DNA of 64,000 bases from Patescibacteria group bacterium (GTDB lineage: Bacteria > Patescibacteriota > Patescibacteriia > Magasanikbacterales > JBBTQS01), in contig JBBTQS010000002.1 of assembly GCA_038065555.1 (NCBI GenBank), positions 26,399 through 90,398 of the forward strand, given 5' to 3'. Shown here piece by piece: positions 23,865-57,937 of this stretch. The translations under genes and the position numbers were made by a program. A model generated the notes under the pieces. That model did no database searches. It was not told where the DNA came from and saw only the letters and a program-made list of their open reading frames with translations. Each line of letters begins with the position of its first letter. Position 1 is the stretch's first letter.

Positions 23865-23875
23865 ACACGTGGAGG

Positions 23876-26326: not shown

Positions 26327-27454
26327 TTATCCAGCCCAGTATACCATATTGGCAGTATCGTGTGCCATGCGTTGCCACGAATACTTCGCGAGTGTTGTTG
26401 GTGCGGCAGCGAGTGTGCGTTTGCGCGTCTCTTCGTCGGTGAGCAGTGTGGTAATTCCGGAAGCAATAGCATCGATTGATGTTGGGTCTGTGTACACTGC
26501 AGCGTCTCCAAGAATTTCTGGGAGACAGGAGGTGTTGCTTGCGAGAACTGGCACGCCGTATGCGAGCGCTTCTAGAGGTGGCAATCCGAATCCTTCGGAG
26601 AGCGACACATAGGCTACGCCGCGTGCTCCACAGTAGAGATCGCGCAGTTGGCGATCTGAGACTGCGCCGCGGATTTCGATGGTGTGGCCTAGTGCACGCG
26701 GGAATTGAGAAGCAATTTTCTCCTCTAATTGTAGATAAAAACGGTTTCTTTCGCCTACGAGGATGAGACGGGTTTTGTCCTCAGGTCTGCTGTCTTTGTA
26801 CCGCATGAATGCGCGAACGAGACGCAACAAGTTCTTGTGTGGATAGGCAACGCCAACGTAGAGCAAGTAGGGGGATGTGGACTTTTGTGTTGTTGCTGGT
26901 TCAACGTGTGGTGCGCCTTCGGTGATCACCGTGATTGGTGTTTTTGCTGATGGATACCAATGGCGGATTTCCTCAGCGACGAATTTCGAGGGTGTAATAA
27001 TGTGTTGACTGCGATAGATTGCGTGGCGAAGCGCGAGTCGATAGCCGATTTTTTTGAAGCAATAGAGCAGGTATCCGCGCGTGGATGTGTCGCGACCTGG
27101 GAAGCGGCGCAATGTGAGATCGTGGATCGTGGTGACAAAGGGGCCACGATAGCGTAGTGGGATATTCCAGTGTGGGAAATGCATGAGATCTACACCGGCA
27201 GCTTCGATGATTTTGGGGAATTCGGTTTGTTCGCGCAGGGTGTACCAGGGAATGTCAGCGGTAACAAGGGTGAATTTCTTACTGGGAAGATGTGTGAATA
27301 GCGCACGGTCGGTTTCAAGAACAAAAAGCGTATACACCGTCTCAGGTGCGTCAGGTGGTGGGGTGAGTGTCGCAAGATTGGTGATGAGGTGACGCAGATA
27401 CCGGCCATGTCCTCCATGAATTCCGGCCATGCGTGCGTCGATGCCGATGCGCAT
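26327..27454 (-). CDS. Glycosyltransferase family 4
   Basis: GT-B fold with the C-terminal EGFGLPPLEA motif. Start set at MRIGIDAR (ATG 27454). Confidence 0.8.
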   Translation of the reverse strand: MRIGIDARMAGIHGGHGRYLRHLITNLATLTPPPDAPETVYTLFVLETDRALFTHLPSKKFTLVTADIPWYTLREQTEFPKIIEAAGVDLMHFPHWNIPLRYRGPFVTTIHDLTLRRFPGRDTSTRGYLLYCFKKIGYRLALRHAIYRSQHIITPSKFVAEEIRHWYPSAKTPITVITEGAPHVEPATTQKSTSPYLLYVGVAYPHKNLLRLVRAFMRYKDSRPEDKTRLILVGERNRFYLQLEEKIASQFPRALGHTIEIRGAVSDRQLRDLYCGARGVAYVSLSEGFGLPPLEALAYGVPVLASNTSCLPEILGDAAVYTDPTSIDAIASGITTLLTDEETRKRTLAAAPTTLAKYSWQRMAHDTANMVYWAG

Positions 27455-27651
27455 AGGTCTACCGTTTGATTTTGGCACGCAGAGAAGCGATGTTTTGTGC
27501 ATCACTTGCAGCGCGCACTGTTGTTTTGAGTTTTTTAATCTTTTGTTCGACTGCGGCAATGTGTTGCTGGATTTTCGCAAGCGTGGAGCTGTTGCTAGTG
27601 GGCATATGGGCGTTTGTGCTATAGTTTGAACAAATATATCATGTCACATCT

Positions 27652-28305
27652 ATGAAACATACTCCAGAAGGGAGCCAAGGCGAACAGGTTGAGGGCGCAG
27701 TGGTTGATCAGGCAGCAACAGCACCAGAGGCTGTTGAACAGAAGAGTCACGAATCACAGTTGCATGAGCAAATTGCAGCACTCCGAGCAAAGACTGCTGA
27801 GGTGCGTGAAATGGTGCAGCGTGCAGATCTGTCTGGTGCGCTTCGTGATGTTGCGCAAGAGGATCTTGCTGACTTAGAGTCAGAACTTCGAGCGCTTGAA
27901 GTTGAACAAAAGGCGGAGATTGCTGCAGAGCATGTTGCTGCGGATGAAGCAGCAAGAATGGAACATGCACAGGAAGTCCTCCAGATAGGAGAACGCATGC
28001 TTGCAAATCTCAAAGAGCGCTTTCCTGATGCGGATCCGACGGTATTTGGTAATTTGGGTCAAGTGATGTCGGGTGAACCGAAGTTGCGATCTGTTGAAGC
28101 AGTGGGGAAGGGTCACGTCAAGAATTGGAGCATGAAAACACTACCAGATTATGCGAGAATAGGAGGAGACGCGATTCAAGCTACGTTGGACGGACAGGTG
28201 GCACAAGCTGGAGCGAGACTTCAAGAGGCATATGCAGCGAATAGTGCTCGCGAACAAGAGCGACTTACTGCGTTGGAGACTCCGTCTGCTGAAGGACAGA
28301 AGTAA
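27652..28305 (+). CDS. Hypothetical coiled-coil protein
   Basis: ATG preceded by an AT-rich TATATCAT -10-like box. Glu/Ala/Gln-rich heptad-like sequence. Confidence 0.4.
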   Translation: MKHTPEGSQGEQVEGAVVDQAATAPEAVEQKSHESQLHEQIAALRAKTAEVREMVQRADLSGALRDVAQEDLADLESELRALEVEQKAEIAAEHVAADEAARMEHAQEVLQIGERMLANLKERFPDADPTVFGNLGQVMSGEPKLRSVEAVGKGHVKNWSMKTLPDYARIGGDAIQATLDGQVAQAGARLQEAYAANSAREQERLTALETPSAEGQK

Positions 28306-29428
28306 GGAGAAGTCTCGCAGAGTCTGACCAATCAAATGCGCGTGCGCGGGCAAACCCACGTGCGCGCATTTCGTTTTGTAGGGCGGAATCAGTGAGGAGT
28401 GTGTGTATGGTGTCTGCGAGCATGTCTGGGCGCCAAGGAAGCGCGAAGAGTGCAGCGTCACCAGCTGTTTCTGCGAGTGCTGAACCGTAGCTCGTTATCA
28501 CTGGCACGCCTGCAGCAAACGCTTCTAATAGTGGAATGCCGAATCCTTCGTACCAGGAAGGGTATAGACAGATTGTAGCGTGTGCGATGGCTGCAGACTT
28601 GGTTGCTTCATCAGCAAAACCAAGGATTTGTACGCGCGAGCTGACTTCTGGATGGTTATCAAGGAATTGCTGTGCTTCATCCCATCCGTATCCAGCGGTG
28701 CCTAGGAGTATCAGGCGCGCCGTAGGAAGTTGGCGCAGTACCAATTCGAATGCAGTGAGCGCGCCGAGAATATTCTTGCGCTTCTCACGCGTGCCAATCA
28801 TGAGAATGCTCGGTTCGTTGGTGTGCGCAAAGACACAGGTTGGCTCGCAGTTGTGTGTGGGAAGTGGCGGCGCGGCAGGTGAGATGGTAGTACTGTGCTG
28901 CGACGCAACGCCGAAATAGGTTTGCAAATCTGTGCGCGTGCTCTCGGATACACTGAACACGTGCGTAGCTTGTTGCAAGAGTCGTGGCAGATTGACTGCG
29001 CGATGCCAGAGCCTCGCCCTGAGAGAGAAGAGGTCTGGGGCGATCTGCATCGATACATCGTGTATGGTCAGGAAGAATGGAATACCTGGAGTGACACTCA
29101 AGAAATGAGGGTTGAGTGCGATCACTGCGTCTACTGTGCCGCCTCCGGCACGGCGCACGAGTGTATCAATCGTTGGGCGACCTGTTAACACAATTCCTGC
29201 ATGCAACAGTTTGTTGGGGTATCGAGTGTGCAGGCTGCGTACGTGCGCATATGACCACTGTGGCGCGCGCGCCGTCATCGCAGCAGAGGCGCTGTTGGTG
29301 TATACAATGAATTCGTGTTCGCGTGCCTCAGGTAATGCAAAAAGCGCGTCCAGTAAGTGACGAGCATATCGCGACACGCCTGTAGGCTGCGCCTCAAGCA
29401 GTGGTCGTCCGTCGATGAGGATCCGCAT
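28265..29428 (-). CDS. Glycosyltransferase family 4
   Basis: MRILIDGRPL N-terminus and EGFGIPLLEA C-terminal motif. Confidence 0.8.
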   Translation of the reverse strand: MRILIDGRPLLEAQPTGVSRYARHLLDALFALPEAREHEFIVYTNSASAAMTARAPQWSYAHVRSLHTRYPNKLLHAGIVLTGRPTIDTLVRRAGGGTVDAVIALNPHFLSVTPGIPFFLTIHDVSMQIAPDLFSLRARLWHRAVNLPRLLQQATHVFSVSESTRTDLQTYFGVASQHSTTISPAAPPLPTHNCEPTCVFAHTNEPSILMIGTREKRKNILGALTAFELVLRQLPTARLILLGTAGYGWDEAQQFLDNHPEVSSRVQILGFADEATKSAAIAHATICLYPSWYEGFGIPLLEAFAAGVPVITSYGSALAETAGDAALFALPWRPDMLADTIHTLLTDSALQNEMRARGFARARAFDWSDSARLLLTSVLQQTESPTQ

Positions 29429-30542
29429 ACGTTGCCTCGTTAGCTGTGACTACCTGGTTCACGAAGGTGCGGATGCGCTCTTTGAATCGTTCCTTGGAAT
29501 AGGGCGCTGCAGAGCGTGCAATATCAGCAGGAGATGCAAGGTTTGTTGGATCAAAGTGGAGTACAGCATCGAGCAAACTCTCCCATGTTTGTTCTTGGAA
29601 TAGCACGCCGTTCACGCCGTGCTGCACGATCTCCGTTGCACCATCTTTGCCATAGGCAATGACAGGGCACCCTTGCATGAGCGCCTCGGTCATCGTGATG
29701 CCGAAATCTTCTGCTTGTGGGTTGATGAATGCTTTTGCATTTGCGTAGAGGCGAGATTTCTCCTCCTCACTTACTTGCCCGATAAATTCAATGAGTGGGG
29801 AAGTAGTAGCTTTGCGTAATTGCTCGAGTGCTCGGCCTGTGCCAAAGATCTTGAGCGGGAGGCCGAGGCGATTGAATACTTCAATCACAAGATCGACACG
29901 TTTGTATTCAACCAGTCTGCCACCAGCGAGGAAATACGGGCGAGAATCATGTGATGCAGGGGTTGCAACTGGGACCATATCAATCGGTGGCTCAATCACA
30001 GTGCTCGTGCGTCCGTACCATCGGCTAATGCGCTGCGCAACCGTGTGCGAGTTCGCAATGAAATAGTCCACACGTTCTCGCGCTGCTCGTAAATCCCAGA
30101 CACGTTGGAACGTGATTACGGGAGAAAGAAGCCATTTGATCGGCTGTGGTTGGGACAACTCTTTGAGATATGATTCCGTGTCAGACCAGAGATAGCGCGT
30201 TGGAGTGTGGCAATAACAAATATGTACGGTGTTGGGACCAACCTTGATTCCTTTTGCGTAGGCGCTGGTGGACGAAATCACCACGTCAAACTCGGACAGA
30301 TCGTATGACTGCGTTGCCCACGGCATGAATGGCATGTACCACTGATACTTCTTGCGGGCGAGCGGCCATGATGCGATGACGCTCTCACGAACATCTGCCC
30401 GCGCAAATTCATTGCCGAATTTGTCGCGGTCGAAGAAGAGTGTGTAGATCGGTGCATCAGGCCAGAGTTCGTGAAATACTCGCAGTACTCGCTCTGCGCC
30501 GCCGTCTTGCGAAAGATAGTCGTGTACTAGGGCAATGCGCAT
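29394..30542 (-). CDS. Glycosyltransferase family 4
   Basis: MRIALVHDYL N-terminus and GT4 C-terminal E..G..MTEA motif. Confidence 0.8.
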   Translation of the reverse strand: MRIALVHDYLSQDGGAERVLRVFHELWPDAPIYTLFFDRDKFGNEFARADVRESVIASWPLARKKYQWYMPFMPWATQSYDLSEFDVVISSTSAYAKGIKVGPNTVHICYCHTPTRYLWSDTESYLKELSQPQPIKWLLSPVITFQRVWDLRAARERVDYFIANSHTVAQRISRWYGRTSTVIEPPIDMVPVATPASHDSRPYFLAGGRLVEYKRVDLVIEVFNRLGLPLKIFGTGRALEQLRKATTSPLIEFIGQVSEEEKSRLYANAKAFINPQAEDFGITMTEALMQGCPVIAYGKDGATEIVQHGVNGVLFQEQTWESLLDAVLHFDPTNLASPADIARSAAPYSKERFKERIRTFVNQVVTANEATYADPHRRTTTA

Positions 30543-30544
30543 AC

Positions 30545-31966
30545 TTATTCAACCTTACGTCGGCGCAATACCGCCCACGGTGTTTTGATAAGAATCGCGA
30601 TGTCCATAAGGAGTGACCAGTTCTCAATGTAGAATGTGTCGAGTCGGATTTCATCTTCGAACGACAAGTCGCTGCGCCCAGAGATTTGGGCGAGTCCGGT
30701 GATGCCTGGACGTACATTGTGTACTTCGCGATGCTCGGGTGCGTAGCCTGCAACTTCGCGGATTTGGTGCGGGCGCGGGCCAACAAGGCTCATCGATCCG
30801 CTCAGGACATTGAAGAACTGTGGAAGTTCGTCAATGCTCCAGCGACGTAGGAATCGACCTACGCGAGTAATGCGTGGATCATCCTGGATTTTGTATAGCG
30901 GTCCTGTCTTGCTGTTCTTTGTTGCAATGAGTTCTTGTTCGTAGGCGAGTGCCTTTCGCTGGTTCTTGAATTGCGTTCCGATCGAGTAGTGTTGGTACAT
31001 GGAGCGGAATTTGAGCGTGGCAAATGTTCGGCCGTTTTCGCCCACGCGTTCGTTGCGGAAGATGATGGGGAAACCAGTTTCGATCAGCGTTGCGATGGCT
31101 GCAAGGAGCATGATTGGCGAGAAGGTCACTAAGAAAAACACCGCGCCAATAATATCCATGAGGCGCTTGAGAATTCCACCCCATCCCTCGAGTCGTGTGC
31201 GCTTGAGTTCGATGATTGGGATGCCGGCGATGGTATCAACTCCTGTTGCGCGTTGATGCATGCCGAACACATCAGGAAGGAACTTGAGTGTGAGATGGTG
31301 AAGTTGGCAGAATTGCAACACGCGCGTGGCATGTGCGCGGTCTGTGGTGTTGACGAAGAGTACTTCCGTGATGAATTGTTTTGCAACGGTGTTAGCAAGA
31401 GCAAGCGCGTTGGAGTTGGTGAGTGTGTCTACGCGCTTTACCACTGTGTAGCCGTAGCTGGGGGAGTCCTTGAGTGCTCGAGTGATGACATCAGACACTT
31501 CGGAGGCGCCAATGAGCAGAAGTCGACGGCTGCCAATCCCTGCACTCAGAAGCACGACTCGCAACAGACGCAACAGTAATCGTCCGACCAGGACAAAGAT
31601 CGTAGCAAAGAATGCGCTTGCAAGCACGAGGAATCGTGAATCAAATCGCTCTCCACTGAAGAAGATAATGAGTGCAAGCACCGCAAGTCCTGCAAAGCAC
31701 GCAGTGATCGTTCGCTTGAGCTCTTCGGAGAATTTCTTGTTTGCTTCAAATGAGTAGAGACCGTTGAGTGCAAAAAGCAGGATCCACAACGCAGCAGTAG
31801 GGATCACGATTTCGAGAAACTTCCCGAGCGTGAGAGAGAACTGCACGGGTCGCAATCCAGTAATGGGGGATGCGAATCGCAAGTACCATGCACAGACGCC
31901 GGCCAGAAGCAGGAGTAGGTAATCGAGCGGGACGCGCAGTGCAATAAGGAGGGTATCGAGTCGCAT
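30545..31966 (-). CDS. Polyprenyl-phosphate sugar phosphotransferase (WbaP/bacterial sugar transferase family)
   Basis: Multiple N-terminal TM helices. C-terminal catalytic domain with PGITGLAQISGRSDLSFEDEIRLD. Confidence 0.85.
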   Translation of the reverse strand: MRLDTLLIALRVPLDYLLLLLAGVCAWYLRFASPITGLRPVQFSLTLGKFLEIVIPTAALWILLFALNGLYSFEANKKFSEELKRTITACFAGLAVLALIIFFSGERFDSRFLVLASAFFATIFVLVGRLLLRLLRVVLLSAGIGSRRLLLIGASEVSDVITRALKDSPSYGYTVVKRVDTLTNSNALALANTVAKQFITEVLFVNTTDRAHATRVLQFCQLHHLTLKFLPDVFGMHQRATGVDTIAGIPIIELKRTRLEGWGGILKRLMDIIGAVFFLVTFSPIMLLAAIATLIETGFPIIFRNERVGENGRTFATLKFRSMYQHYSIGTQFKNQRKALAYEQELIATKNSKTGPLYKIQDDPRITRVGRFLRRWSIDELPQFFNVLSGSMSLVGPRPHQIREVAGYAPEHREVHNVRPGITGLAQISGRSDLSFEDEIRLDTFYIENWSLLMDIAILIKTPWAVLRRRKVE

Positions 31967-35228: not shown

Positions 35229-37205
35229 TTAGACTTCGATCAACACCGGCAAAATCATTGGTCGGCGCTTGGTCTTGGTGTAGAGATACTCTCCCAAGTC
35301 ATCGCGCAACTTGTTCTTGATGATGTTGGCGTCAGAACGCGCTGCTTCATCGCTCTTTTCGATGAGTGTGCGTGCGCGCTTGCGGACGTCTTCGATGAGA
35401 TCTTTTTGTTCTTTGAGATGCACGAATCCGCGAGAGATAATGTCAGGATTCTGCGTGAGCTTGCCTGTTGAGTGAGACATGGTGGCGATGATCACGACCA
35501 TGCCGTCTTCAGAAAGCGCTTGGCGATCGCGCAGAACCACTGCGCCAACGTCACCAACTCCCAGTCCGTCTACGAACACGTATTCTGTGTCTACTTTGTC
35601 CTTGAGCAACACGCCCTTGCCTGTGGAATCGAATTCCATGACCTGGCCGTTGTCTGCGACAAAGATATTTTCTTCAGGCCATTTCATTGCGCGTGCTGCC
35701 TTGGCATTGTAGCGCAACATGAAGTGGTTGCCGTGGATAGGCACGAAGTACTTCGGACGAATGAGCTGAAGCATCAATTTGATGTCCTCAGTCTTTGCGT
35801 GACCACCGGAGTGGACATCCATCATGGTGTAGTTGATCACATTGGCGCCACGGCGGAAGAGTACATCCATGAGACGCTGTACACTGCGCTCGTTACCCGG
35901 AATGACCGAGGATGAGAACACGACCGTGTCGCCTGGAATGATCTTCGCGAATCGGTGTTCATTGCTTGCAATGCGCATGAGCACTGCAGACTTCTCACCC
36001 TGCGCGCCGGTGCACATGATAATGACTTTTTCCTTTGGATAATCGTCGATTTCATCAATGCCGATCATGACGCTCTTCGGTACCTCCATGTACTTGAGCA
36101 TCTTCATGATTTCGACGTTGGTCTTCATGCTGTAGCCGTCGATGGCGAGCTTCTTGCCGAGCTTGGTCGCGATCTCGATGACTTGCTGTACGCGCGAGAG
36201 CAAAGAAGCAAATGTGCCGATAATGATGCGACCTTGTGCTTTCACGAAGATTGCTTCGAGTGCTTGGCCGATCGTGTGCTCTGAGATCTGGTGTCCTTCG
36301 CAGTTTGCGTTGGTGCTGTCTGAGAGAAGCGCGAGAACACCTTTGCTGCCGATTTCTGCGAGTCGTCCGAGGTTGGCAGGTTTGTTATCCACCGGCTGGA
36401 AATCGAACTTCCAGTCGCCGGTGTGAATAATGGTTCCTGCCGCCGTGTGAATCACCACACCCATTGAGTCAGGAATATTGTGGTTGACGTGGAAGAATTC
36501 AATGCGGAAGTGTCCGAGCTGCAACGTCTCTTCAAGTGTCACTGAGCGCAAGTTGAGCTCGTAACCACCGAAATCTTCTTGGCGCTTCTTGATAATCGCG
36601 AGTGTGAGGGGGAGTCCGTATACAGGGGGATTGCCCATCTCTGGAACAATATGTGGGATACCTCCGATGTGGTCGTAGTGACCGTGCGTGATGATTACAC
36701 CACGAACATTCTTTTCTTTGCCCTTCACGTACGAAACGTTCGGGATGATGTAGTCGATACCTGGCATGTCTTCGTCAGGGAATTGGAGTCCCATGTCAAC
36801 GAAGATAATGTCGTTCTTGTATTCAATCAGTGTGCAGTTGCGGCCGACTTCCTCGAGTCCGCCAAGTACAATTACTCGAACCTTGTCTGCGCCAGAACCA
36901 AACGACTGTTCGCGCATGACCTGTGGACGTGCACCGCCAGCGCCACGAGGGTGGCGACCACCATCGTGCATTGGTTGGCGAGGGCCGCGATCGTTGCCGC
37001 GCTGTGGGAGCAATGTGCGGCGAGCTTCAATAATTTGAGGTGGAACCTCAGACGCTTCGGTTTGCATTGGACGCGCTGAAGGCGCGGGGCCACTTGCAAG
37101 ACGCTTTTGCACCGAATTACGCATCGGGCGAGCGCGCAGTCCATGCATCGGGGCGTTGCCTCGATGTCCCATTCTGCGTGGGGAAGTTCCTTCTGATGTT
37201 TGCAT
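35229..37205 (-). CDS. rnj: Ribonuclease J (metallo-beta-lactamase/beta-CASP RNase) with an Arg/Pro/Gly-rich N-terminal extension
   Basis: HGHYDHIGG motif, beta-CASP and C-terminal domain. The ORF-track start 37280 overlaps tRNA-Leu; trimmed to ATG 37205. The true start could be further downstream. Confidence 0.85.
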   Translation of the reverse strand: MQTSEGTSPRRMGHRGNAPMHGLRARPMRNSVQKRLASGPAPSARPMQTEASEVPPQIIEARRTLLPQRGNDRGPRQPMHDGGRHPRGAGGARPQVMREQSFGSGADKVRVIVLGGLEEVGRNCTLIEYKNDIIFVDMGLQFPDEDMPGIDYIIPNVSYVKGKEKNVRGVIITHGHYDHIGGIPHIVPEMGNPPVYGLPLTLAIIKKRQEDFGGYELNLRSVTLEETLQLGHFRIEFFHVNHNIPDSMGVVIHTAAGTIIHTGDWKFDFQPVDNKPANLGRLAEIGSKGVLALLSDSTNANCEGHQISEHTIGQALEAIFVKAQGRIIIGTFASLLSRVQQVIEIATKLGKKLAIDGYSMKTNVEIMKMLKYMEVPKSVMIGIDEIDDYPKEKVIIMCTGAQGEKSAVLMRIASNEHRFAKIIPGDTVVFSSSVIPGNERSVQRLMDVLFRRGANVINYTMMDVHSGGHAKTEDIKLMLQLIRPKYFVPIHGNHFMLRYNAKAARAMKWPEENIFVADNGQVMEFDSTGKGVLLKDKVDTEYVFVDGLGVGDVGAVVLRDRQALSEDGMVVIIATMSHSTGKLTQNPDIISRGFVHLKEQKDLIEDVRKRARTLIEKSDEAARSDANIIKNKLRDDLGEYLYTKTKRRPMILPVLIEV

Positions 37206-37248
37206 AGGAAAAAAGAGAATCGTTAAAAATAAAATGTGAACCTCTTTG

Positions 37249-37332
37249 TGCCGTGGGCGGGACTTGAACCCGCACACCACAGGTGGTACAGCGCTCTGAA
37301 CGCTGCGTGTCTACCAATTTCACCACCACGGC
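37249..37332 (-). tRNA. tRNA-Leu (anticodon CAG), long variable arm
   Basis: Acceptor GCCGTGG/CCACGGC, D-loop AAATTGGTAGA, anticodon stem CAGCG/CGCTG with loop TTCAGAG, 16-nt variable arm, T-arm GCGGG-TTCAAGT-CCCGC, discriminator A. Confidence 0.85.
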
Positions 37333-37354: not shown

Positions 37355-39199
37355 TTACTTCCACGCGCCTGATGTCTCGATATACCACGAAGTCACAGAG
37401 GTAAATCGATCAGCAGGTGTGATGAGACGTGTAGGAATCATCGTGTGCACCGATTTGCGCTGTACGTAGACGTATGACGGATTGTACAGGAAGATCGCGG
37501 GAATATCTTTGTCGAGTTGCTCCTGGAACGACTGGTATCGTTGCGCTTTCACAGTGAGGTCATCTGTTGCGCGGGCCTGATCGAGAGCGACATCAGCGCG
37601 GCCACTGCTCACGTATTGCGCAAAGTTGAGTCCGGGGTACTTCGCTTGCGACGAGTGCCAGAATGGATATGGATCCAAATCCTCTCCAAGCACCTGTCCG
37701 AAAAGAAGTACATCGTACGAACGATCTTTGAGTATCTGATCACGAAGTGCATCTGGTGCGACACGCTTGATCGTCACCATAACACCGATACGCTGCCAAT
37801 AGGTCTGCACTGCTTGGGCAGATTCGATTGCTTCTGGTGTATCTACGGTCGTGATTGCCACGGTCAGAATATCACCCTTTTTGTTTTTTCGGAAGACTTG
37901 TTGTGACGCAGGTGCGCCAAGGGTGTCGTCCTCTGTGAGCACGGTGCGACTGATCTCACTCCATCCAGCGGTGGTGAGTTCTTTGGACGCTTGTTCAACG
38001 TTGTAGCTGAGTGGATCTGTGCCAGATCGGTATCCTGGGGTTCCAGGAGGCATCGGGCCAGAGAGCGCGGTGCCCTTGTTGAGCAATACGCGGTTGACGA
38101 TCTCTTGCTTGTTCACAGCGAGTGCAAGCGCACGACGTACACCAACCGATTGCGCCGCAGTGAACTGTGTTGTGTTGAAGAACAACGCAGTGTATTGCGG
38201 CAAGGGGAGCGTGTGCACGTCTACACTACGCTTTTGCACATCATCTACGCGCGATCGAGGGACGAAATGAATGCCATCAATCTGCTGATTGGTGAATGCG
38301 ACGAGCGTAGACTCGATATCTGGGAAGTATGCAAATGAAAGGGTTTCGATGAACGGTGCGCTGCGATGATACTGCGTGTTGCGCGTGAGACTATATCGAA
38401 GGATCGAACCAGTGCGGCTCTTGGTCAGCGCATTGAACATAAATGGACCTGCACCAATAGGATGCAAATTAGCATCTGCAAGGCGCATGGACTGAGGCGC
38501 AACGTCTTTCCACACATGTCGTGGCAAAATACCCGTGGTCAGCAAATACGGAAACGCTGGATAGTTGCGATTGACGGTGAATACAACGGTGCGGTCGTCG
38601 GATTTGCGCGCACTGACTCCTTGCCACCCTGAGCGCTGTGGAGAACCTGCAGTGCCGTCCTGTATGCGCTCAACAGTGAAGATAACATCGTCAGCTGTGA
38701 TGGGTTCTCCATCATGCCAACGCAAGTGCTCACGCAATGTCACGGTATAAGTTGCGCTGCTCGTAGTCACATGGAACTGCTCTGCAAGATCAGGTTCGAG
38801 TGTTCCATCTGCATTGGTAGCGAGCAGTCCTGCAAAGATGAGACGAGACAGATCTCGATCCGCGTCAGTTGTGGCAAACAGCGGATTCACAAAGCGTGGC
38901 GATCCTACAACACCCTCGGTGTATTCACCGCCGACTGCCGGGACAATGATCCGATGCGTACGCGCATATCCAAGAAATGCGAGGACGCATCCAATCACCA
39001 GAATCGAACAGCCAGCAGCCCACATCCAGAATTCACGTCGCGTCATGAAGCGAAAGAAGTAGCGAAATTGAGCCCGCGTGGGTATGCGGGTACGGGCTGC
39101 ACTTGCAACCAATTGTCGATCATGACGTCTCAGGCGTGCAAGGCGCACAGCCATGGCGCCAGTACGAGCGCGCGAGCGCAAAAAGCGCATACGGTGCAA
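37355..39199 (-). CDS. ABC transporter substrate-binding protein, family 5 (peptide/nickel/opine type), membrane-anchored
   Basis: SBP_bac_5-like length and motifs. N-terminal Arg-rich segment plus TM anchor instead of a lipobox. Confidence 0.7.
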   Translation of the reverse strand: MHRMRFLRSRARTGAMAVRLARLRRHDRQLVASAARTRIPTRAQFRYFFRFMTRREFWMWAAGCSILVIGCVLAFLGYARTHRIIVPAVGGEYTEGVVGSPRFVNPLFATTDADRDLSRLIFAGLLATNADGTLEPDLAEQFHVTTSSATYTVTLREHLRWHDGEPITADDVIFTVERIQDGTAGSPQRSGWQGVSARKSDDRTVVFTVNRNYPAFPYLLTTGILPRHVWKDVAPQSMRLADANLHPIGAGPFMFNALTKSRTGSILRYSLTRNTQYHRSAPFIETLSFAYFPDIESTLVAFTNQQIDGIHFVPRSRVDDVQKRSVDVHTLPLPQYTALFFNTTQFTAAQSVGVRRALALAVNKQEIVNRVLLNKGTALSGPMPPGTPGYRSGTDPLSYNVEQASKELTTAGWSEISRTVLTEDDTLGAPASQQVFRKNKKGDILTVAITTVDTPEAIESAQAVQTYWQRIGVMVTIKRVAPDALRDQILKDRSYDVLLFGQVLGEDLDPYPFWHSSQAKYPGLNFAQYVSSGRADVALDQARATDDLTVKAQRYQSFQEQLDKDIPAIFLYNPSYVYVQRKSVHTMIPTRLITPADRFTSVTSWYIETSGAWK

Positions 39200-39202: not shown

Positions 39203-39415
39203 TTAAGCAACGAGCAAGTGGAGCGTTGTCGTTCCGAAGAAGAGAACCGCAAACACAATCGTTGCGTAGAAAATGCTTTTTTCAATACCACGCTTGGTGC
39301 TGTATACCGCACCGGAGCCACCAAAAGCGCTTCCAAGGCCGGAGCCCTTTTGCTGTACAAGAATGCACGCAATGAGTCCAATAGCGAATAACCACTCTAA
39401 AATCTGGAAAGTCAT
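39203..39415 (-). CDS. secG: Preprotein translocase subunit SecG
   Basis: MTFQILEWLFAIGLIACILVQQKGSGLGSAFGG matches the SecG N-terminal helix plus glycine-rich loop. Start taken at the internal Met. Confidence 0.7.
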   Translation of the reverse strand: MTFQILEWLFAIGLIACILVQQKGSGLGSAFGGSGAVYSTKRGIEKSIFYATIVFAVLFFGTTTLHLLVA

Positions 39416-39514
39416 ACAGGAATTCAGTGGGCTCACTATACCAATGAGAGGCAAAATCGTCAAGAACTGCCGCCAGATTCGCATCTATGGTATAATCTGC
39501 TCGTTCTCTTTTCT

Positions 39515-40261
39515 TTGTATACTATGGAGGAATCTGGAGGGGTAGCGAAGCACGGGATTCATCGTCATCCGTGGCATTGGGTGGCGTTGGCTCTTGTTAT
39601 TTTGATCGCCATTCTCTTTTTTGTGGTTAGCTTCTTGCGCTCGTATGCGCAAATTGTCCGTGCGCAGCGTGATGGAGTGTCTACTGGTCTTGTAACGAAG
39701 GCTCCACAGAGTACACAAAAAGCTGCAGAGACATTTGGTCCACAACGTCAGGTGTCAGAAGGGGATTTCGCCGCACTTGGACCCGCTGATGCAAAAGTAA
39801 CGATTGTTGAATTCGGCGATTTTGAATGTCCATACTGTGGTCGCAGCTATCCGATCGTGCGATGGATCAAGGAGCGCTACGGCGATCGTGTGCGTCTCGT
39901 CTATCGCCATTTTCCGATTGCCACGATCCATCCCAACGCCGCCTATGCTGCCGAAGCATCAGAATGTGCGCGCGAACAAGGGAAATTCTGGGAATATCAT
40001 GATGCGCTCTATGAGCATCAGGACGCGCTGAGCAAGAATGATCTGGTGAGTTACGCAGCACTTGTCCGACTCGATGTACCCAAGTTCCAGGAGTGTATTG
40101 CCAGTGGCCGCATGCAGCCGCGTGTGCGAGCTGACGTGCAAGCTGCGCTGCAAGCAGGCGTGACTGGTACTCCGACATTTTTCATTAATGGACATCGTTG
40201 GGAAGGATTTGTTTCGCAGCAGCAATGGGAGCAAATTCTTGAGAACTTGTTGAACGTATGA
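39515..40261 (+). CDS. DsbA-family thiol:disulfide oxidoreductase, membrane-anchored
   Basis: N-terminal TM helix. Thioredoxin fold with active site FECPYCGRSYP (CPYC). Confidence 0.8.
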   Translation: MYTMEESGGVAKHGIHRHPWHWVALALVILIAILFFVVSFLRSYAQIVRAQRDGVSTGLVTKAPQSTQKAAETFGPQRQVSEGDFAALGPADAKVTIVEFGDFECPYCGRSYPIVRWIKERYGDRVRLVYRHFPIATIHPNAAYAAEASECAREQGKFWEYHDALYEHQDALSKNDLVSYAALVRLDVPKFQECIASGRMQPRVRADVQAALQAGVTGTPTFFINGHRWEGFVSQQQWEQILENLLNV

Positions 40262-43200
40262 TGACTGTCGTGCGCAGGTTCGCCATTCTCGCTGTAGTTG
40301 TCACCGCGATGCTTTTGCCTCGCGGTGCTTCGGCGTCTACTGCAGCCTGCTGCATTGTGAAGAACAACTACACCAAGAACACCATGGGGTGTCTTGCGCG
40401 TCAGATTCCAGATTCAGAAATCAGCAAGGTGAAGGCGAATCCTGCGCAGTTCGCAGCTAGTTATTGCAACATCTCACTTCCGACAGTATCGCTCACTGCA
40501 ACACTCGCCATCGGTGCGTGTGACACGCAGCCCGCAGCAACCAAGTGCAGCGCGCCGCCAGACCAGAACAAACCATTTTTGGATTTCAAGAAGCAGTGGG
40601 AAGTGGGAGGATTTTGCGCGTACAAGGGGACTGGATCGACGTCATATGATGCGTGCAGTGAAGTGACCAACAATGTTTGTCCAGGTGGATTCAACTACGG
40701 AAATGGTGAGTTCTTTTCTGGTCCGAGAAATGGCGCATTTTGCCCAGCATCCAATCCTGCAGATTTCTCCGCAGCAATCGCAGCGGGTAATAACATCGTT
40801 CCGGGTAAGGAAGTTGTAGCGGATTCCATGGATGCCTGCGTGTATTACGTGGGAGACAAATATTCGGACGAAGCAGTTGTTACGTGTTCGGAACCAGAAG
40901 CAGTACAGGGAAAGAAAGTTTGCCCTATTGCGCCTACAGGCCAAGGGCTGCAGCCTTCGCCGCAGCATCCAACAGAGATCAAGGCGTGTCAGTTGTCGCA
41001 GCATTGCTGTGTGGTGTATGAGGATACGGATAACAGCGATTCCGTAGCAGCGGGTGAAGTGCGTCAGTGTAGTCCAGCAAATGTGAGCTGTAGTACGTTT
41101 GTGTATACCAAGGATGCTGCGGTGACAACCGCGAACACCAAGGATGCGGGCACGGCGTATGACAAGGTGCTCTATCGGACAGATTCTGTACAAAAGACAT
41201 GCGGAGAGGTTCCCGTGTGCTCAGGCAAAACGATTTCCACAGCGCAGGCTCTAGCGAATTTGATCAAGAATGCTGGCCAAACACCTGCAAGTGGTCTCAC
41301 TCCAGAACAAAAGGCAGAACTCGAGGCAGCGTCGAAAAATGGTCCAGTGTGGACACAAGCGTTGTGTGAAGTCGAGGCAAATAATGTGTGGTCTCCACCG
41401 AATCCATCGATCACTGTTGGGCCATATTGCTACACGAATCCAGACAAAGCAAAGACATCTTTGGCTATTCCTATTGCAGGACTCTCTGTTGCGTCGCTTG
41501 CGACCTACATTCCAAATTTGTTCAACTACGGACTTGGATTGCTTGCAACCATGACTGTTCTCGCAATTATTTTCGCAGGATTCCAGTGGGCAACTGCGGC
41601 AGGGAATGCTTCTGCGGTTGGAAACGCGAAGGAAATCATGATCAGCGCTTTTGCAGCGCTCTTTGTGGCGCTGGGAAGTTTCACATTGCTCCAGACGATT
41701 TCGCCAAGTCTCTTGGAATTCAAGTTACCGCCGATAGCCGCGATCCTGCCAATAGAATTTTACGGCAAGGGTGATGAATTCATGTGCTGCAACGAACGTG
41801 GTGTGTGTCTGCAAGTAGAAGCAACTGGCCCGAATACCTTTGTAGTGCTACGCGATGGAACAAAAATGGAAGTAGGAAAAAATGTAGATCAGGCCAAGTG
41901 CCTGCCATTCAGGGCAAATGGTGAATTCTGCCGACAGGACGGTCCAACAGGGGATGCATGTCGTAAGGTGGGTGGAACGTGCACGGTGGGGAGCGCTGAG
42001 GATCTGACGTCGATCACTTCTATTGCAGGGGATAAGGCAACACAAGGAATGTGCTCTATTTTCTTGGAGAGCTACGTTGGTGGTGCAGCAACGTCTGTAT
42101 TCACTCTCGCAAATAGCTACAGCTTTGGAATAACGGGGTGGCTGGGTGGCAAGGTTGGAAATGCTTTCAAGAGTGAAGAAGATTTGATCGCAGGGTCGAC
42201 CGATGTTGGACGCTGCTACAAAAATGTGGATCGGCGCGTTGCTGGGCAGTATTGTCGTGCCAACTCGGAATGTGCCTCTGGCACATGTGTACGATTGCCG
42301 GATTCCGATGGGTGTTATGTTGATCGCGAGATTGGTATTTGCAGTGATGGTAACAAGGGAGATGTCTGCGATCCACTTGGACACACGTTGGTTGGCGGTG
42401 TGAATACCTACGTGAACAAGAATATTTGTAGGAGTGGACTTTCATGCAATTTCGTTCGAAATACGACAGGCGGTCAGGTGTTTGCTGATCGCAATTTGAA
42501 AGTGGTTGGCAATTATTTTGAGTGCGGTGACGGTAGTATGAATTCTGCCTGTGGCAATGCGATTGCAGAGTGCAAAGACCCTGCGCAGCAGGGCAAGGGT
42601 GGTACATACCTCACAGATGATGTTTGTGAAACTTGGCCAGAAATGTTGAATGTCGCAAAGTGCAAATATGAAGGCAAACGCATTGTAGTAGAAGAAATGG
42701 TACAGAATGCAGGAATTCTCAACAGTACAGTCAATGTCGCGTGGGGTGCAGATTTGACTCTCGCAGTTGGGTCACTTGCAGGCGGTGGACTTGCAAAACT
42801 AAACAAGGCAGTAGGTGGCTATGCGACAGCAGTCGCAGCTGGATTGACGCTGGCAAATGGTGTCTCCCAGGCAGAGCTCTCGCGCAATATCGCGGAGATG
42901 CAGCGGTATGCATATGCTGTAGCGTTCACTGGACCTGATGTGAAGAACTGTTCATTGAGCAAAGGCACGCCCAATGACGCCAACTGTAAGAATGGAATGG
43001 TGTGTACACCAACAGGAGCACTCAAGGAATTGCGCTGTCAGATCAAGGATGGTGGTAAGAAGGAAGGTGATATCTGTTCATACATTGGTGCCATGTCGCA
43101 TGAGTTCAATGGTTTGACCAACTCAGTGTCCAACGGCGACAACTGTGACGAAAGTCTCGGGTTGCGCTGTTCAGTTGCTCGCATTGGCGAAGGCGAAGAG

Positions 43201-43896
43201 CGTGCGGGATTCTGTACGCGCGCAAGTTGGGGTAGTAAGTGCATACTCGCAGAAGGAAAGACATGGGATTACGAAGAAAAAGATTGTAGCGAAGTGTCCA
43301 AAACAGCGCCAAGTGATTTGGGCAAAGATAATGTTGCAGATCCATCGTCTCTAGGCGAGCTTCATCGTGCTTGTTACCGAGATCCATCGAGCACTAATCC
43401 AACTGTGGGCAAGTGTGGAGCGGTTCGCAATCTCTACGAAGAAGATATCGCAGGATTCAAAGTTTCACTCGACAAGATGATTCTGTTCAAGATTCCAGGC
43501 GGCACAGGTTCGCAAGCTCCGCAAATCGTCGAAGCGCCAAAGAAGACCATCGGCAGTCTCTGCTCACGTCGTCCGATGTACGAGGACAACAAGACTACAG
43601 ACGCGCTCGAGCTCGACTGCGCACCGGGTCTTGCGAGCACTGGGTTCGCCGAATGGGCAAAGGCAAAATCATACGCGGCCCAGACGCCATTTGGTATGGG
43701 GAGTGGAACAACATATTTTGCTGATAAATACGTGTTCAACCCTGTTTGCCATTTCGATACACCACAAACTACCATTGGTAAGTGCGCGATTCTCGTAGGC
43801 GGGCTCCAGAAGGATGCGGCAAAGGGCGGCTACCTCCGTACGCTGTACGCACCGTTCGATTCGTCGGCTCATAGCATCGTTGAATACATCAAATAA
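40258..43896 (+). CDS. Giant cysteine-rich secreted/surface protein (1212 aa) with central hydrophobic helices
   Basis: ATGA-coupled to the DsbA gene. Signal peptide (MMTVVRRFAILAVVVTAMLLPRGASAS). Many Cys, including CC pairs, in both halves. Two to three hydrophobic helices around residues 395-475 (…LATMTVLAIIFAGFQWATAAG…FAALFVALGSFTLL). Confidence 0.7.
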   Translation: MMTVVRRFAILAVVVTAMLLPRGASASTAACCIVKNNYTKNTMGCLARQIPDSEISKVKANPAQFAASYCNISLPTVSLTATLAIGACDTQPAATKCSAPPDQNKPFLDFKKQWEVGGFCAYKGTGSTSYDACSEVTNNVCPGGFNYGNGEFFSGPRNGAFCPASNPADFSAAIAAGNNIVPGKEVVADSMDACVYYVGDKYSDEAVVTCSEPEAVQGKKVCPIAPTGQGLQPSPQHPTEIKACQLSQHCCVVYEDTDNSDSVAAGEVRQCSPANVSCSTFVYTKDAAVTTANTKDAGTAYDKVLYRTDSVQKTCGEVPVCSGKTISTAQALANLIKNAGQTPASGLTPEQKAELEAASKNGPVWTQALCEVEANNVWSPPNPSITVGPYCYTNPDKAKTSLAIPIAGLSVASLATYIPNLFNYGLGLLATMTVLAIIFAGFQWATAAGNASAVGNAKEIMISAFAALFVALGSFTLLQTISPSLLEFKLPPIAAILPIEFYGKGDEFMCCNERGVCLQVEATGPNTFVVLRDGTKMEVGKNVDQAKCLPFRANGEFCRQDGPTGDACRKVGGTCTVGSAEDLTSITSIAGDKATQGMCSIFLESYVGGAATSVFTLANSYSFGITGWLGGKVGNAFKSEEDLIAGSTDVGRCYKNVDRRVAGQYCRANSECASGTCVRLPDSDGCYVDREIGICSDGNKGDVCDPLGHTLVGGVNTYVNKNICRSGLSCNFVRNTTGGQVFADRNLKVVGNYFECGDGSMNSACGNAIAECKDPAQQGKGGTYLTDDVCETWPEMLNVAKCKYEGKRIVVEEMVQNAGILNSTVNVAWGADLTLAVGSLAGGGLAKLNKAVGGYATAVAAGLTLANGVSQAELSRNIAEMQRYAYAVAFTGPDVKNCSLSKGTPNDANCKNGMVCTPTGALKELRCQIKDGGKKEGDICSYIGAMSHEFNGLTNSVSNGDNCDESLGLRCSVARIGEGEERAGFCTRASWGSKCILAEGKTWDYEEKDCSEVSKTAPSDLGKDNVADPSSLGELHRACYRDPSSTNPTVGKCGAVRNLYEEDIAGFKVSLDKMILFKIPGGTGSQAPQIVEAPKKTIGSLCSRRPMYEDNKTTDALELDCAPGLASTGFAEWAKAKSYAAQTPFGMGSGTTYFADKYVFNPVCHFDTPQTTIGKCAILVGGLQKDAAKGGYLRTLYAPFDSSAHSIVEYIK

Positions 43897-43960
43897 CTTT
43901 CGTTGACAGGGTCTGGACTTCGTGGTACGCTGTACACCGTTTCATAATTGAACTTGGCGT

Positions 43961-46819
43961 ATGGCTCAACCGAAGAAAGATGTGCTGTCGATTCGTGGTG
44001 CTCGTGTCCATAATCTCAAGAACATCTCGGTAGAGATTCCCAAGAATAGCCTGGTGGTAATCACGGGTCTCTCAGGCTCGGGCAAGTCATCGCTCGCGTT
44101 TGATACCATCTATGCAGAGGGTCAGCGCCGCTACGCAGAGTCACTCTCGGCCTATGCGCGCCAGTTCATGGATCTCCAGGACAAGCCAGACGTAGACGAG
44201 ATCCGTGGCCTCTCTCCAACCATTGCCATTGACCAAAAATCCACAGCGCGAAATCCGCGTTCCACTGTAGGAACGGTAACCGAAGTGTATGACCACTTGC
44301 GGTTGCTTTTTGCACGCATCGGTCGCCAGTTTTGCCCAGATTGTAATATTGAAGTCACGCGCTACAGCACTGGTTCCATGGTAGAAGCGATCCGCAAAAT
44401 GGGACGCTCAGGTCACGAGTTGCTCGTGCTCGCGCCAGTGCTTGTTGATGTCACAATTGATAAGAAAACATTACTCTCGCATGTCGAGGGTTCTGGCTAC
44501 GAGTATCTGCGATTCGATGGCGTACTCATGCAGAAGAGCGAATTGGATGCCATTGAGATCATGTCCAAGGTTCCACATACACTCGATGTAGTTGTAGGAC
44601 GTGTTTCGGATGTGAAGAAGGCAAATATTGCTTCGTTTGTTGATGCGGCGTTGCGATTGGGCAATGGCCACGTGCTCGTGTACGACACAGACGAGGACGA
44701 AGACACGTCATTCTCCGAACAGTTCGTGTGCAAGAAGTGTAATCGCGAAATGGCAGAGATTGAGGCGCGCACCTTCTCGTTCAACAGTCCTCATGGCGCG
44801 TGCCCACGGTGTACTGGACTTGGTGTTGTGCTCGACGTAGACAAGGACCTCGTGATCCCGAACCAAAAGCTCACACTTGCCGAAGGTGCGATCCAGCCAT
44901 GGACACGCATCACCGGCAACCAAGCGCAGTACCAAAAGGTGCTCGCAGCAGTAGCGGCAGCGCATGGATTCTCCATGGACAAACCTGTGAAGGATTTGTC
45001 GAAAAAAGTGTTGGATATTTTGTTCTTCGGAACGGACGGCCAGGAATACGATGTAGATGGCAAGAAAGTGCAGTACGAAGGTATTGTGCCCAATCTCACG
45101 TTGCGCCACGCAGACACAACGAGCGAGTACATCCGCAAAGAGATCGAAGCGTACATGCGCGAAAGCACGTGTCCGATTTGCGCTGGCAAGCGTTTGCGCA
45201 AAGAAGCGCTCGCGGTGCGCATCGGTGGCAAGAATATTGCTGATGTAGTAGAGATGAGCATCGATGAATCCGCTGTGTTCTTCGACACCATGAAGAAAGG
45301 CAAGGTCGGGGACACAGAACTTGATGATCGCGAACTCAAGATCTCTGGCCCAGTAACGCGCGAGATTCTCTTGCGTATCGCTGACCTCAATCGCGTTGGT
45401 CTCGAGTACCTTACGCTCGATCGCTCTATGGCCACGCTCTCAGGCGGTGAGGCGCAGCGCGTACGTCTCTCCACACAGCTCTCCACAGGCCTCACAGGCG
45501 TTATTTATATCCTGGACGAGCCATCTATCGGCTTGCACCCTCGCGACAACGAGAAACTCATTGAGACGCTCAAGGCGCTTCGCGACCTGGGCAACTCCGT
45601 GATTGTCGTAGAACACGACGAAGCCATGATGGAACAAGCAGATTATCTCATGGACATCGGACCAGGCGCTGGCGTGTATGGCGGCGAACTCATGGCAGCT
45701 GGAACTGTCGCTATGGTGAAGAAGTCGGCGAAGTCGCTCACGGCCAAGTATCTCACTGGCAAGCTCTCCATCACCGCACCCAAGAAACCAAGCGAAGGCA
45801 ATGGCAAGTACATCACGGTTCTTGGTGCGCGCGCATTCAACCTCAAGAACATTGATGTGAAGATCCCGCTTGGCCGCCTCGTGTGTGTCACGGGTGTTTC
45901 TGGCTCTGGTAAATCATCGCTTGTCATCGATATTCTTTCGAAGGCACTCTCCGCTGAGTACCATGGCAGCAAGGCAATGCCAGGCGAGTACAAGGACATT
46001 AAGGGCATTGAGAACGTAGACAAGGTTATTGCCATCGACCAGACACCAATTGGCCGAACACCTCGCAGCAACCCCGCGACGTATACTGGCGTGTTCACGC
46101 TCATTCGCGATCTCTTCACTGAAGTACCAGAGGCGCAGTTGCGTGGCTATGATGCTGGCAAGTTCTCATTCAATGTGAAAGGCGGCGGTCGCTGCGAAGC
46201 ATGTTCTGGTGACGGCTCGGTTCGCATTCCAATGCAATTCCTCTCTGACGTATTCGTAGAATGCGCAGAATGTGGCGGCAAGCGCTACAACCAGGAAGCA
46301 CTCGAGATCCACTACAAAGGTAAGACCATTGCCGACGTGCTCGGTATGACTGTGGAAGAGTCTGCACGCTTCTTCAGCGACATTCCAGCCATCGCTGACA
46401 AGATGCAGATCCTGCGCGATGTGGGCCTCGGCTACGTGTCTCTTGGCCAATCTGCAACCACGCTCTCAGGCGGTGAAGCGCAGCGCATCAAGCTCGCAAC
46501 CGAACTCTCTCGCCGCGCGACAGGCAAGACACTCTACATTCTTGACGAGCCTACAACCGGTCTCCACTTCGCAGACATTGAGCAATTGCTCGGCGTGTTG
46601 CGCCAGCTCGTAGACAAGGGCAACTCTGTCCTCGTGATCGAGCACAACTCCGATGTGATCCGCTGCGCAGACTGGATCATCGACATGGGACCAGAAGGCG
46701 GCAAACGTGGTGGTGAAGTTGTTGCCGAAGGTACGCCAGCTGACATCATGAAGAACAAGAAGAGTATGACTGGCTTGTATCTCAAGAGTTACAAGGAGTC
46801 ACGCGCCAAAGCAGCGTAA
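43961..46819 (+). CDS. uvrA: Excinuclease ABC subunit A
   Basis: Two ABC ATPase modules ([25 protein letters not shown]), Zn-finger Cys clusters, 952 aa. A TTGACA-17-TACGCT promoter lies upstream at about 43905-43935. Confidence 0.95.
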
Positions 46820-46834: not shown

Positions 46835-46872
46835 AAAACAAAACACCGGCGGCCGCCGGTGTTTTGTTTTTG
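46835..46872. terminator. Bidirectional terminator between convergent uvrA and rplS
   Basis: AAAACAAAACACCGGCGGC/GCCGCCGGTGTTTTGTTTT: a perfect stem flanked by A-run and T-run on both sides. Confidence 0.6.
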
Positions 46873-50641: not shown

Positions 50642-51229
50642 TCAGCGTTGCTGGATTCTGCCGAGCACTTGCGTCGTGCATTCTTCGATGCCAGACGCGA
50701 CGTGCGTTGGTGTCTTCCCAGAAGCGCCGGGGTATCTGATGCTCTTTGGCACGAGAACACAGGAGGGTAATTCCATTTCCGTATTTCGCGTGAGCATGGT
50801 GTAGGCGCGCTGGAATTCTTCGGTGAACGTCCAGTGTTCTTCTGTTTCGTCGTGCCATAGGACGACGTGTACAGGTAGACCTGTGTTGCCGCGTTCCTTC
50901 CAGAATTCCTTGACGAAGATGCATGGGCCGCACCAGCGCGAGCTCAGGATGACCAGGACATTGTCGCTGTTGTTCCGGAGTTGCTCGCGAAGCTCGACGA
51001 GTGAGCTGACGCGGGTCATTGCTGGTGGTTCGTCGATATCAGCGATGTTGTTTTTGTTGGCATCCTCGCACCCTCGGGTCTGCCGTGGGCCGCGAGTTTC
51101 CATGCATCGGTCGTCAGCATTGAGGACGCCATCGCCATCAATGTCGTTGGCTGGATACATGCTGATTACCGTCGCACACGCGCCGAGGCACAACATCATG
51201 AAAAAAAGTGGAATGATCGATTGTCGCAA
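50642..51229 (-). CDS. Thioredoxin-like lipoprotein with N-terminal calcium-binding-like Asp repeats
   Basis: Signal peptide plus lipobox (MMLCLGAC), DIDGDGVLNADD repeat, thioredoxin active site WCGPC. Confidence 0.7.
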   Translation of the reverse strand: MRQSIIPLFFMMLCLGACATVISMYPANDIDGDGVLNADDRCMETRGPRQTRGCEDANKNNIADIDEPPAMTRVSSLVELREQLRNNSDNVLVILSSRWCGPCIFVKEFWKERGNTGLPVHVVLWHDETEEHWTFTEEFQRAYTMLTRNTEMELPSCVLVPKSIRYPGASGKTPTHVASGIEECTTQVLGRIQQR

Positions 51230-56955: not shown

Positions 56956-57025
56956 TTGCATTGACGCGCAGCGCTAGCCTTGGTAGGCTGGCGCTGGTTT
57001 TTCATGCTCTTCCTGTGGAGGGGAA

Positions 57026-57424: not shown

Positions 57425-57450
57425 CGCGAGTCACAAAAGGAAAGACAAAA

Positions 57451-57885: not shown

Positions 57886-57887
57886 AC

Positions 57888-57937
57888 ACCGCCCGCACCG
57901 CTTCTCAACTGAGGCGCGTGCGGGCGGTTCGTTTTTT
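57888..57937 (+). terminator. Rho-independent terminator closing the second island
   Basis: 11-bp GC-rich stem plus T-run. Confidence 0.55.

Follow-up and report, generated by a model that had tools for sequence, protein, structure and literature searches.

An overlapping gene pair for a DsbA-type oxidase and a giant cysteine-rich protein with a VirB2-like hairpin in a Patescibacteria genome

A gene pair in a metagenome-assembled genome of the ultra-small Patescibacteria (Candidate Phyla Radiation, CPR) raises the question of what a protein of 1212 residues, 60 of them cysteines, does with a pilin-like hairpin in its middle, and why its reading frame overlaps that of a thiol oxidase. The pair lies in a stretch of 64,000 nucleotides (contig JBBTQS010000002.1 of assembly GCA_038065555.1, positions 26,399 to 90,398), referred to below as the window, and consists of two genes on the same strand, flanked by divergent secG and solute-binding protein genes on one side and by uvrA on the other (Table 1). 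An earlier note on this DNA had described a membrane-anchored DsbA homologue with a CPYC motif, an ATGA overlap between its stop codon and the start of the large gene, a secreted product rich in cysteines (CC doublets included) on both sides of hydrophobic helices, and secG together with a family-5 solute-binding protein upstream on the opposite strand; this layout is borne out by Pfam domains, the transmembrane segment, the signal peptide, the cysteine counts and the motifs read in the sequence. We infer that the large protein is a membrane-resident, DsbA-dependent host-contact protein that is docked by its pilin module, a reading to which we assign a probability of about one half.

Table 1. 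Features of the locus, in window positions, and large proteins encoded at five of the related loci
Feature	Positions	Strand	Length (aa)	Cys	Basis and remarks
Family-5 solute-binding protein	37355..39199	-			Pfam SBP_bac_5, 5.5e-66
secG, divergently transcribed	39203..39484	-			Pfam SecG, 5.4e-11; context only
DsbA-type thiol oxidase, membrane-anchored	39524..40261	+	245		Pfam, sequence reading; NCBI MEK7647991.1
ATGA overlap, DsbA stop and large-gene start	40258..40261	+			read in the sequence
Gene of the large protein	40258..43896	+	1212	60	NCBI MEK7647992.1, annotated "hypothetical protein"
Sec-type signal peptide, aa 1-27 (...PRGASA/ST)	40258..40338	+			hydrophobicity
N-terminal ectodomain, aa 28-399	40339..41454	+		22 (18 invariant)	composition, alignment
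Hypervariable segment	40958..43640	+			150-nt sliding comparison; 43-83% nt identity to L001
VirB2-like (PF18895-type) module, aa 362-505	41341..41772	+			Pfam, family profile, AlphaFold
C-terminal ectodomain, aa 490-1212	41725..43893	+		38	composition, alignment
uvrA, conserved downstream neighbour	43961..46819	+			Pfam; divergence yardstick
P0013, locus L011			876	40	DsbA-type gene upstream
P0025, locus L012			687	56	DsbA-type gene upstream
P0018, locus L013			586	48	DsbA-type gene upstream
P0012, locus L014			502	40	DsbA-type gene upstream
Protein from an open reading frame read in DNA, locus L019			491	19	DsbA-type gene upstream

The central hairpin and its family

The single Pfam match of the large protein falls on its centre and is to PF18895 (T4SS_pilin; aa 411-472, E 4.4e-4, 20.7 bits). 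NCBIfam adds a faint match over aa 414-481 (E 0.065) to the Mbov_0395 pilin-like conjugal transfer protein of a Mycoplasma integrative and conjugative element, and in Pfam there is no direct match to PF04956 (TrbC/VirB2) at E<=1. Much stronger evidence came from a family profile, built from the four closest homologues and used in an exhaustive search of protein representatives: 7141 proteins match it at E<=1e-3, and 598 of them at E<=1e-10. Full-length relatives number just five, and the remaining matches share no more than profile positions ~365-475, that is the hairpin with a short upstream motif. When 93 of these matches were scanned against Pfam, 83 proved to be PF18895 proteins (E<=1e-3, best 1.8e-25) and 8 TrbC/VirB2 proteins (PF04956, best 6.7e-8). 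The positional orthologue P0025 scores 28.0 bits with PF18895, above the curated cut-off, and P0018 and P0012 carry this family in precomputed annotation. Homology of the hairpin to PF18895 is well supported by this transitivity, the large protein itself appearing as a divergent fringe member. Other searches added little: a PDB profile search with the hairpin-module alignment gave only a chance match (Rho GDI, E 1), a word-index search with the central 124 aa found no match and also missed the large protein itself, and one with an 8-sequence alignment returned just the four close homologues.

Within the module, a beta piece with the pattern W..C...W.PP...GPYC (C370, C391) is followed by helix 1, an AAGN loop, helix 2 and a LLQTISP...PPI tail. 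An AlphaFold model of aa 362-505, computed with 49 homologues (mean predicted local distance difference test, pLDDT, 86.5), consists of a small beta piece closed by C370/C391 and a two-helix hairpin, in which helix 1 (aa 414-446, nt 41497-41595) and helix 2 (aa 451-481, nt 41608-41700) are separated by a four-residue loop. Hydropathy places two strongly hydrophobic helices at ~aa 425-448 and 457-480, and a weaker hydrophobic stretch at aa 400-419 that is modelled as a beta strand. In the 49-sequence module alignment the large protein keeps Y417, G441, G449, A457, K458, L468, L478 and P483, which are all of the invariant or near-invariant positions. The earlier note had spoken of a pair or triple of helices reminiscent of VirB2/TrbC pilins. 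The pair stands and the triple does not, while the likeness to these pilins is supported by the Pfam match, the family profile and the modelled hairpin alike.

The signal peptide and the hairpin together would place both cysteine-rich domains outside the cell (N-out/C-out), so that the predicted cytoplasmic face comprises only the four-residue loop and the invariant Ala-Lys. In size the protein does not resemble a pilin, as ~370 of its 1212 residues precede the hairpin and ~720 follow it. Such extensions are nevertheless common in this branch. Among the best 150 representatives, which have a median length of 473 aa, 144 possess more than 100 aa after the hairpin, 142 have at least four cysteines there, and 48 are in addition extended by more than 100 aa ahead of the hairpin. 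A hydrophobic, signal-peptide-like N-terminus is present in 143 of 153 family proteins, and in 23 of the 153 a CC doublet falls among the first 50 residues. Within this branch, the protein is thus not the unusual pilin fusion that the earlier note had considered; it is the largest form met with, and no one-off.

Some relatives extend the hairpin with recognisable enzymes. In P0010, P0017 and P0029, a C-terminal SLT lytic transglycosylase domain comes after two to four PF18895 hairpins in tandem, and these proteins are pilin-module carriers of cell-wall enzymes; single relatives carry VanY, Amidase_2, NlpC/P60 or M15 peptidase, and a GDSL lipase fusion was also found. At the P0010 locus (L015), a gene for a YkuD L,D-transpeptidase is located just upstream of the tandem-hairpin-SLT gene. 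Because relatives join SLT, VanY, Amidase_2 and NlpC/P60 domains to this very hairpin, we regard it as a widely used carrier for the display of extracellular domains in this branch. The fusions, that to GDSL lipase among them, also suggest a surface enzyme or toxin, with ectodomains of unrecognised catalytic activity (e.g. wall- or membrane-degrading) that would be used on a host. We consider this highly improbable for the large protein, in which Pfam, NCBIfam and PDB profiles reveal no catalytic domain or motif and where, in the eight-sequence alignment of full-length members, few polar residues besides Cys and Gly are invariant outside the hairpin.

The oxidase gene and its presumed client

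The upstream open reading frame (ORF) spans 39515-40261 (+) and opens with a TTG codon at 39515, the likely start being the ATG at 39524, which yields the 245 aa of the NCBI annotation. Its product matches Thioredoxin_4 (1.7e-28, 100.4 bits) and DSBA (4.3e-20, 72.8 bits), both above their cut-offs, and weakly also TraF (E 0.019). A CPYC active site (nt 39827-39838) and a cis-Pro motif, GTPTFF, near the C-terminus can be read in the sequence. One N-terminal transmembrane segment (nt ~39578-39637) lies ahead of the catalytic domain, and the anchor is presumably oriented such that this domain is extracytoplasmic. CP[YF]C is retained in seven other full-length DsbA genes that were compared, and the copy at L007 is truncated ahead of the active site. 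In the DsbA-type gene of L019 (2409-3155), upstream of the 491-aa hairpin protein, CPFS replaces CxxC, which results in a single-cysteine variant.

The pairing of the two genes is remarkably persistent. We compared 13 related loci, down to 54% UvrA identity and with large proteins of ~490-1212 aa, and in all 13 a DsbA-type gene is found directly upstream on the same strand, with a spacing of -4 to +100 nt, while uvrA follows at every locus where the downstream gene was identified. The eight full-length members (P0001-P0008, down to 27% identity) share the order DsbA, large gene, uvrA. A junction overlap of 4 nt (ATGA) or 1 nt (TGATG/TAATG) is kept in each of the eight full-length homologues, and we interpret the ATGA overlap as probable translational coupling of the two genes. 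At L010, secG is absent and the solute-binding protein neighbour is gone, and the pair of dsbA and large gene remains. The five loci in the lower part of Table 1 have UvrA proteins with 54-57% identity to that of the window. Scans of loci by alignment yielded one truncated locus from genome contigs and four loci from metagenome contigs. The locus L006 (CAZVGV010000005.1), labelled "uncultured Gammaproteobacteria", carries at its end the initial 159 codons of a homologue that is 69% identical to the large protein, and is probably a mis-binned Patescibacteria contig.

Cysteine accounts for 4.95% of the large protein; in the remaining 43 ORFs of the window its share is 1.06%. No cysteine occurs in aa 401-500, and three CC doublets are found at aa 31, 250 and 510, the mature chain beginning just ahead of the first. 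In the eight-sequence full-length alignment, whose far end is no more than 27-34% identical to the large protein, 53 of the 60 cysteines are invariant, and about every second invariant column is one of them. The lack of any CxxC or CxxCH spacing in the large protein, which has only 7 His, makes metal or haem sites unlikely, and haem or metal binding was rejected on these grounds. The even number of cysteines in each ectodomain, the lack of CxxC spacing and an invariance of the kind that structural disulfides predict all point to disulfide-bonded cysteines. A Tat signal (RRF at aa 6-8) was also rejected, as distant homologues lack the motif and transport in an unfolded state is to be expected of a client with 60 Cys whose DsbA is extracytoplasmic. 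Three further ORFs of the window that seem rich in cysteine (56961-57590, 57606-58343 and 62591-63976) are Arg/Ser-rich and have no family match, and one of them overlaps tyrS; they look like non-coding frames and were rejected as genuine Cys-rich proteins.

An enzyme-substrate relation is the simplest reading of the persistent overlap combined with the extreme cysteine content of the client. The view of the earlier note that the coupling implies dedicated disulfide formation gains support from the 13 upstream DsbA-type genes and the eight overlaps.

Divergence of the ectodomains and the role proposed

With UvrA as a yardstick, the large protein has diverged fast. In the distant full-length homologues P0005-P0008, UvrA is 75-77% identical to the window protein, DsbA 44-57% (the value of 57% being that of a 67-aa fragment in L007) and the large protein 27-33%. 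The near-identical strain L001 (ENA ERZ27247837, k141_2348930) has 99.5% identity in UvrA, 99.2% in DsbA and 75% in the large protein. Flanks on either side of the divergent block (over ~6 kb and 4 kb) are mostly 94-100% identical in nucleotide sequence, and the hairpin part, which lies within the block, retains ~98% aa identity. So sharply bounded a block looks like an allelic replacement by recombination. The P0002 allele is, in places, nearer to P0003/P0004 than to the window allele. The ectodomains behave like those of an exposed protein on which diversifying selection acts, and the hairpin like a module under purifying selection.

A large, secreted, fast-evolving protein with its own folding enzyme might also be a major envelope or surface-layer (S-layer) type structural protein, i.e. 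an abundant disulfide-braced coat that is anchored by the hairpin and whose variability comes from phage or predator pressure and not from host recognition; that the gene belongs to the core genome, is single-copy and has a housekeeping neighbourhood in every relative examined would fit such a coat. We nevertheless think it improbable. There are no repeats and no known S-layer or anchoring domains, the strict conservation of hairpin residues would be unexpected for a simple anchor, and the relatives range from ~490 to 1212 aa with non-homologous extensions, contrary to what a conserved lattice would lead one to expect. As to repeats, neither self-BLAST nor hhalign among six sub-regions (best probability 21%) gave convincing evidence of internal repeats or domain duplication.

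We favour the host-contact protein, at the even odds stated above, and envisage the following process. One gene of the pair would encode an enzyme dedicated to oxidative folding, and the other the main client of that enzyme. The large protein, with its signal peptide, would cross the membrane via Sec, and the membrane-anchored DsbA, co-produced from the same mRNA by translational coupling, would oxidise the emerging chain into ~30 structural disulfides. The hairpin module would be no passive anchor: because every family-invariant residue is kept, it probably still makes pilin-type contacts, either between its own copies or to small pilins or the type IV secretion machinery. A role as major pilus subunit would be excluded, since ~1070 ectodomain residues would have to be accommodated per hairpin, a steric argument that leans on the known packing of conjugative pili. 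Most likely, the large protein would reside in the membrane at or beside a secretion or pilus apparatus and present two rigid, fast-diversifying domains, which may engage the host cell, or else further ligands outside, in an adhesin or host-recognition role. The hypervariable segment would then be the outcome of host or phage selection on the exposed surface.

The conservation of the hairpin can be taken one step further. Solved conjugative pili have both pilin termini on their outer surface, and domains attached there would point outward. In a pilus-tip or priming subunit, the hairpin would be extracted by a type IV secretion system (T4SS), a few copies would be incorporated first and cap the pilus, and the cysteine-rich domains would act as a host-binding tip adhesin, with a function comparable to that of FimH or VirB5. 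The module, which is the best-conserved stretch of the protein, keeps all invariant residues of the pilin family, the ectodomains are hypervariable, and VirB2-like pilins are widespread in Patescibacteria with no separate adhesin known (PMC12102498). Such a subunit is possible, though we think it rather unlikely, as it would be unprecedented to extract one whose hairpin sits between two large disulfide-locked domains, and the window offers neither T4SS genes nor small pilins.

Several observations also weigh against the host-contact protein that we favour. Genes for VirB4, VirB6, VirD4, PrgI or a further pilin are lacking in the entire window, and the large gene is set among housekeeping genes. 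The 20.7 bits of its PF18895 match fall under the curated cut-off of 26.6 bits. Foldseek, run against the PDB, does not single out pilins (best E 1.2, generic helical hairpins); as this result is compatible with homology and not diagnostic of it, the case for homology rests on the sequence profiles. A DsbB or VKOR that could re-oxidise the DsbA was not recognised among the ORFs of the window. The neighbourhood (uvrA, rplS, cmk) is widely syntenic in these genomes, and gene order is for this reason weaker evidence of functional linkage when taken by itself. Outside the hairpin, searches of Pfam, NCBIfam and PDB profiles gave no match to the ectodomains, and AlphaFold, run on the complete mature chain with 8 sequences, gave a model that could not be used (pLDDT 38; predicted template modelling score, pTM, 0.23). 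Since the ectodomains have no detectable relatives of known function and the model is of no help, solely topology and evolutionary pattern speak for the term adhesin.

With respect to the first of these points, virB4, virB6, prgI or other pilin genes were also not found in the flanks (up to 10 kb on each side, as far as the contigs reached) of the 13 related loci. A PDB sequence-profile search with the whole-protein alignment had no match either. The C-terminal ectodomain contains two Cys-free, Gly/Ala-rich stretches, at ~aa 600-650 and 803-897, which were modelled as helical at low confidence.

Neighbouring genes, related systems and wider meaning

The solute-binding protein neighbour is also kept at L009, L011, L013 and L019. 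It is located beside the dsbA-hairpin pair and is not accompanied by adjacent ATP-binding cassette (ABC) permease or ATPase genes; it may be a further part of the same surface module. A scan of 39300-44100 for promoters and terminators found no more sites than occur in shuffled sequence. A 36-nt perfect palindrome (AAAACAAAACACCGGCGGCCGCCGGTGTTTTGTTTT) at 46835-46870, between the convergent uvrA and rplS and kept in L001 and L003, is probably a bidirectional intrinsic terminator. Two other loci of the window are a 195-aa lipoprotein-like ORF (50642-51229, -; ..MMLCLGAC..) with a thioredoxin-type WCGPC and no Pfam match, and a gene in which a cupredoxin domain is joined to a DsbD_2/CcdA-like membrane protein (2906-3997, -), which adjoins a Cu-type P-ATPase (3901-6174). 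The two could act outside the cytoplasm as a reducing or isomerising branch complementary to DsbA.

Further features of the window are related to the envelope. A T2SSE (PilB/PilT-type) ATPase (108-1304, +) is followed by a 472-aa membrane protein without a family (1264-2682, +). Two large proteins, one with DUF11 (679 aa) and one with DUF4012 (816 aa), are encoded at 21957-26326 (-), beside a glycosyltransferase cluster (26327-31966). The RNase J ORF (35229-37280, -; 683 aa, GTG start) runs across tRNA-Leu(CAG) at 37248-37332, and its true start must lie further downstream because homologues have 573-662 aa.

The closest known relatives are the VirB2-like pilins of Patescibacteria (PF18895), with which the large protein shares the bacterial group, a homologous module of signal peptide and two-helix hairpin, and the same invariant residues. 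A survey that searched with small pilin size in mind reported VirB2-like pilins (PF18895, PF04956) in 1948 Patescibacteria assemblies, often near virB4 and sometimes in arrays of 2-11 genes, and found no PrgB-like adhesin (PMC12102498). Those pilins are small and often arrayed beside virB4 (PMC12102498), whereas the present protein has its hairpin in mid-protein between two Cys-rich ectodomains, is encoded between dsbA and uvrA, and scores under the PF18895 cut-off. T4SS and pilin array are essential in Southlakia epibionticum, the one species tested (PMC10633639, PMC12857230). With canonical TrbC/VirB2/TraA pilins (PF04956), the hairpin has in common its topology, both termini outside and a short basic loop, and 8 of the 93 relatives scanned match that family; in contrast to them, the large protein has no direct PF04956 match, bears huge added domains and gives no evidence of cyclisation, acetylation or polymerisation. 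The organism that encodes it is presumed to be monoderm, a further contrast to these systems (PMC12857230).

Other likenesses are of a functional kind. Two-domain pilus adhesins (FimH of type 1 pili; VirB5 and PilY1-type tip proteins) would follow the same proposed logic, a pilin-type module joined to a variable receptor-binding part, but have no sequence or fold relationship to the large protein and can serve as an analogy only. TraF/TrbB of F-like T4SS and the DsbA specialised for pertussis toxin (PMC12724015) likewise tie a thioredoxin-fold oxidoreductase genetically to an exported, disulfide-dependent assembly; the present enzyme differs in being membrane-anchored, of the Thioredoxin_4 type and coupled to a single giant client. 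Giardia's VSPs (its variant-specific surface proteins) may be compared for their high cysteine content, conserved cysteine positions, fast-varying exposed surface and membrane anchor, yet they are unrelated in sequence, and the large protein has no CxxC and is the product of a single-copy gene rather than of a switching family. Our searches of full-text literature found no published description of Cys-rich pilin-module fusions, or of their pairing with DsbA, in Patescibacteria.

Patescibacteria account for much of the diversity of bacteria and spend their lives attached to other microbes. For the recognition of their hosts the locus offers a conserved and testable candidate with two exposed, diversifying, disulfide-stabilised domains and an oxidase of its own. 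It also prompts one to ask by what route DsbA regains its oxidised state in organisms that are reported to lack a respiratory chain (PMC12857230). A bolder proposal, which we consider unlikely, takes the PF18895 hairpin to be a genuine module of pilus assembly and the large protein to be the missing adhesin of the Patescibacteria T4SS or pilus, a few copies of which would prime the pilus, cap it or be docked at the base. The hypervariable ectodomains would then decide on the host, and the pair of dsbA and pilin fusion would be a host-range locus that is conserved throughout much of the radiation. If this were true, many of the "pilins" counted in these genomes would really be anchors for displayed domains, cell-wall hydrolases included. 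Already the finding that a "pilin" hairpin widely carries large extracellular domains means that pilin counts in these genomes need rereading.

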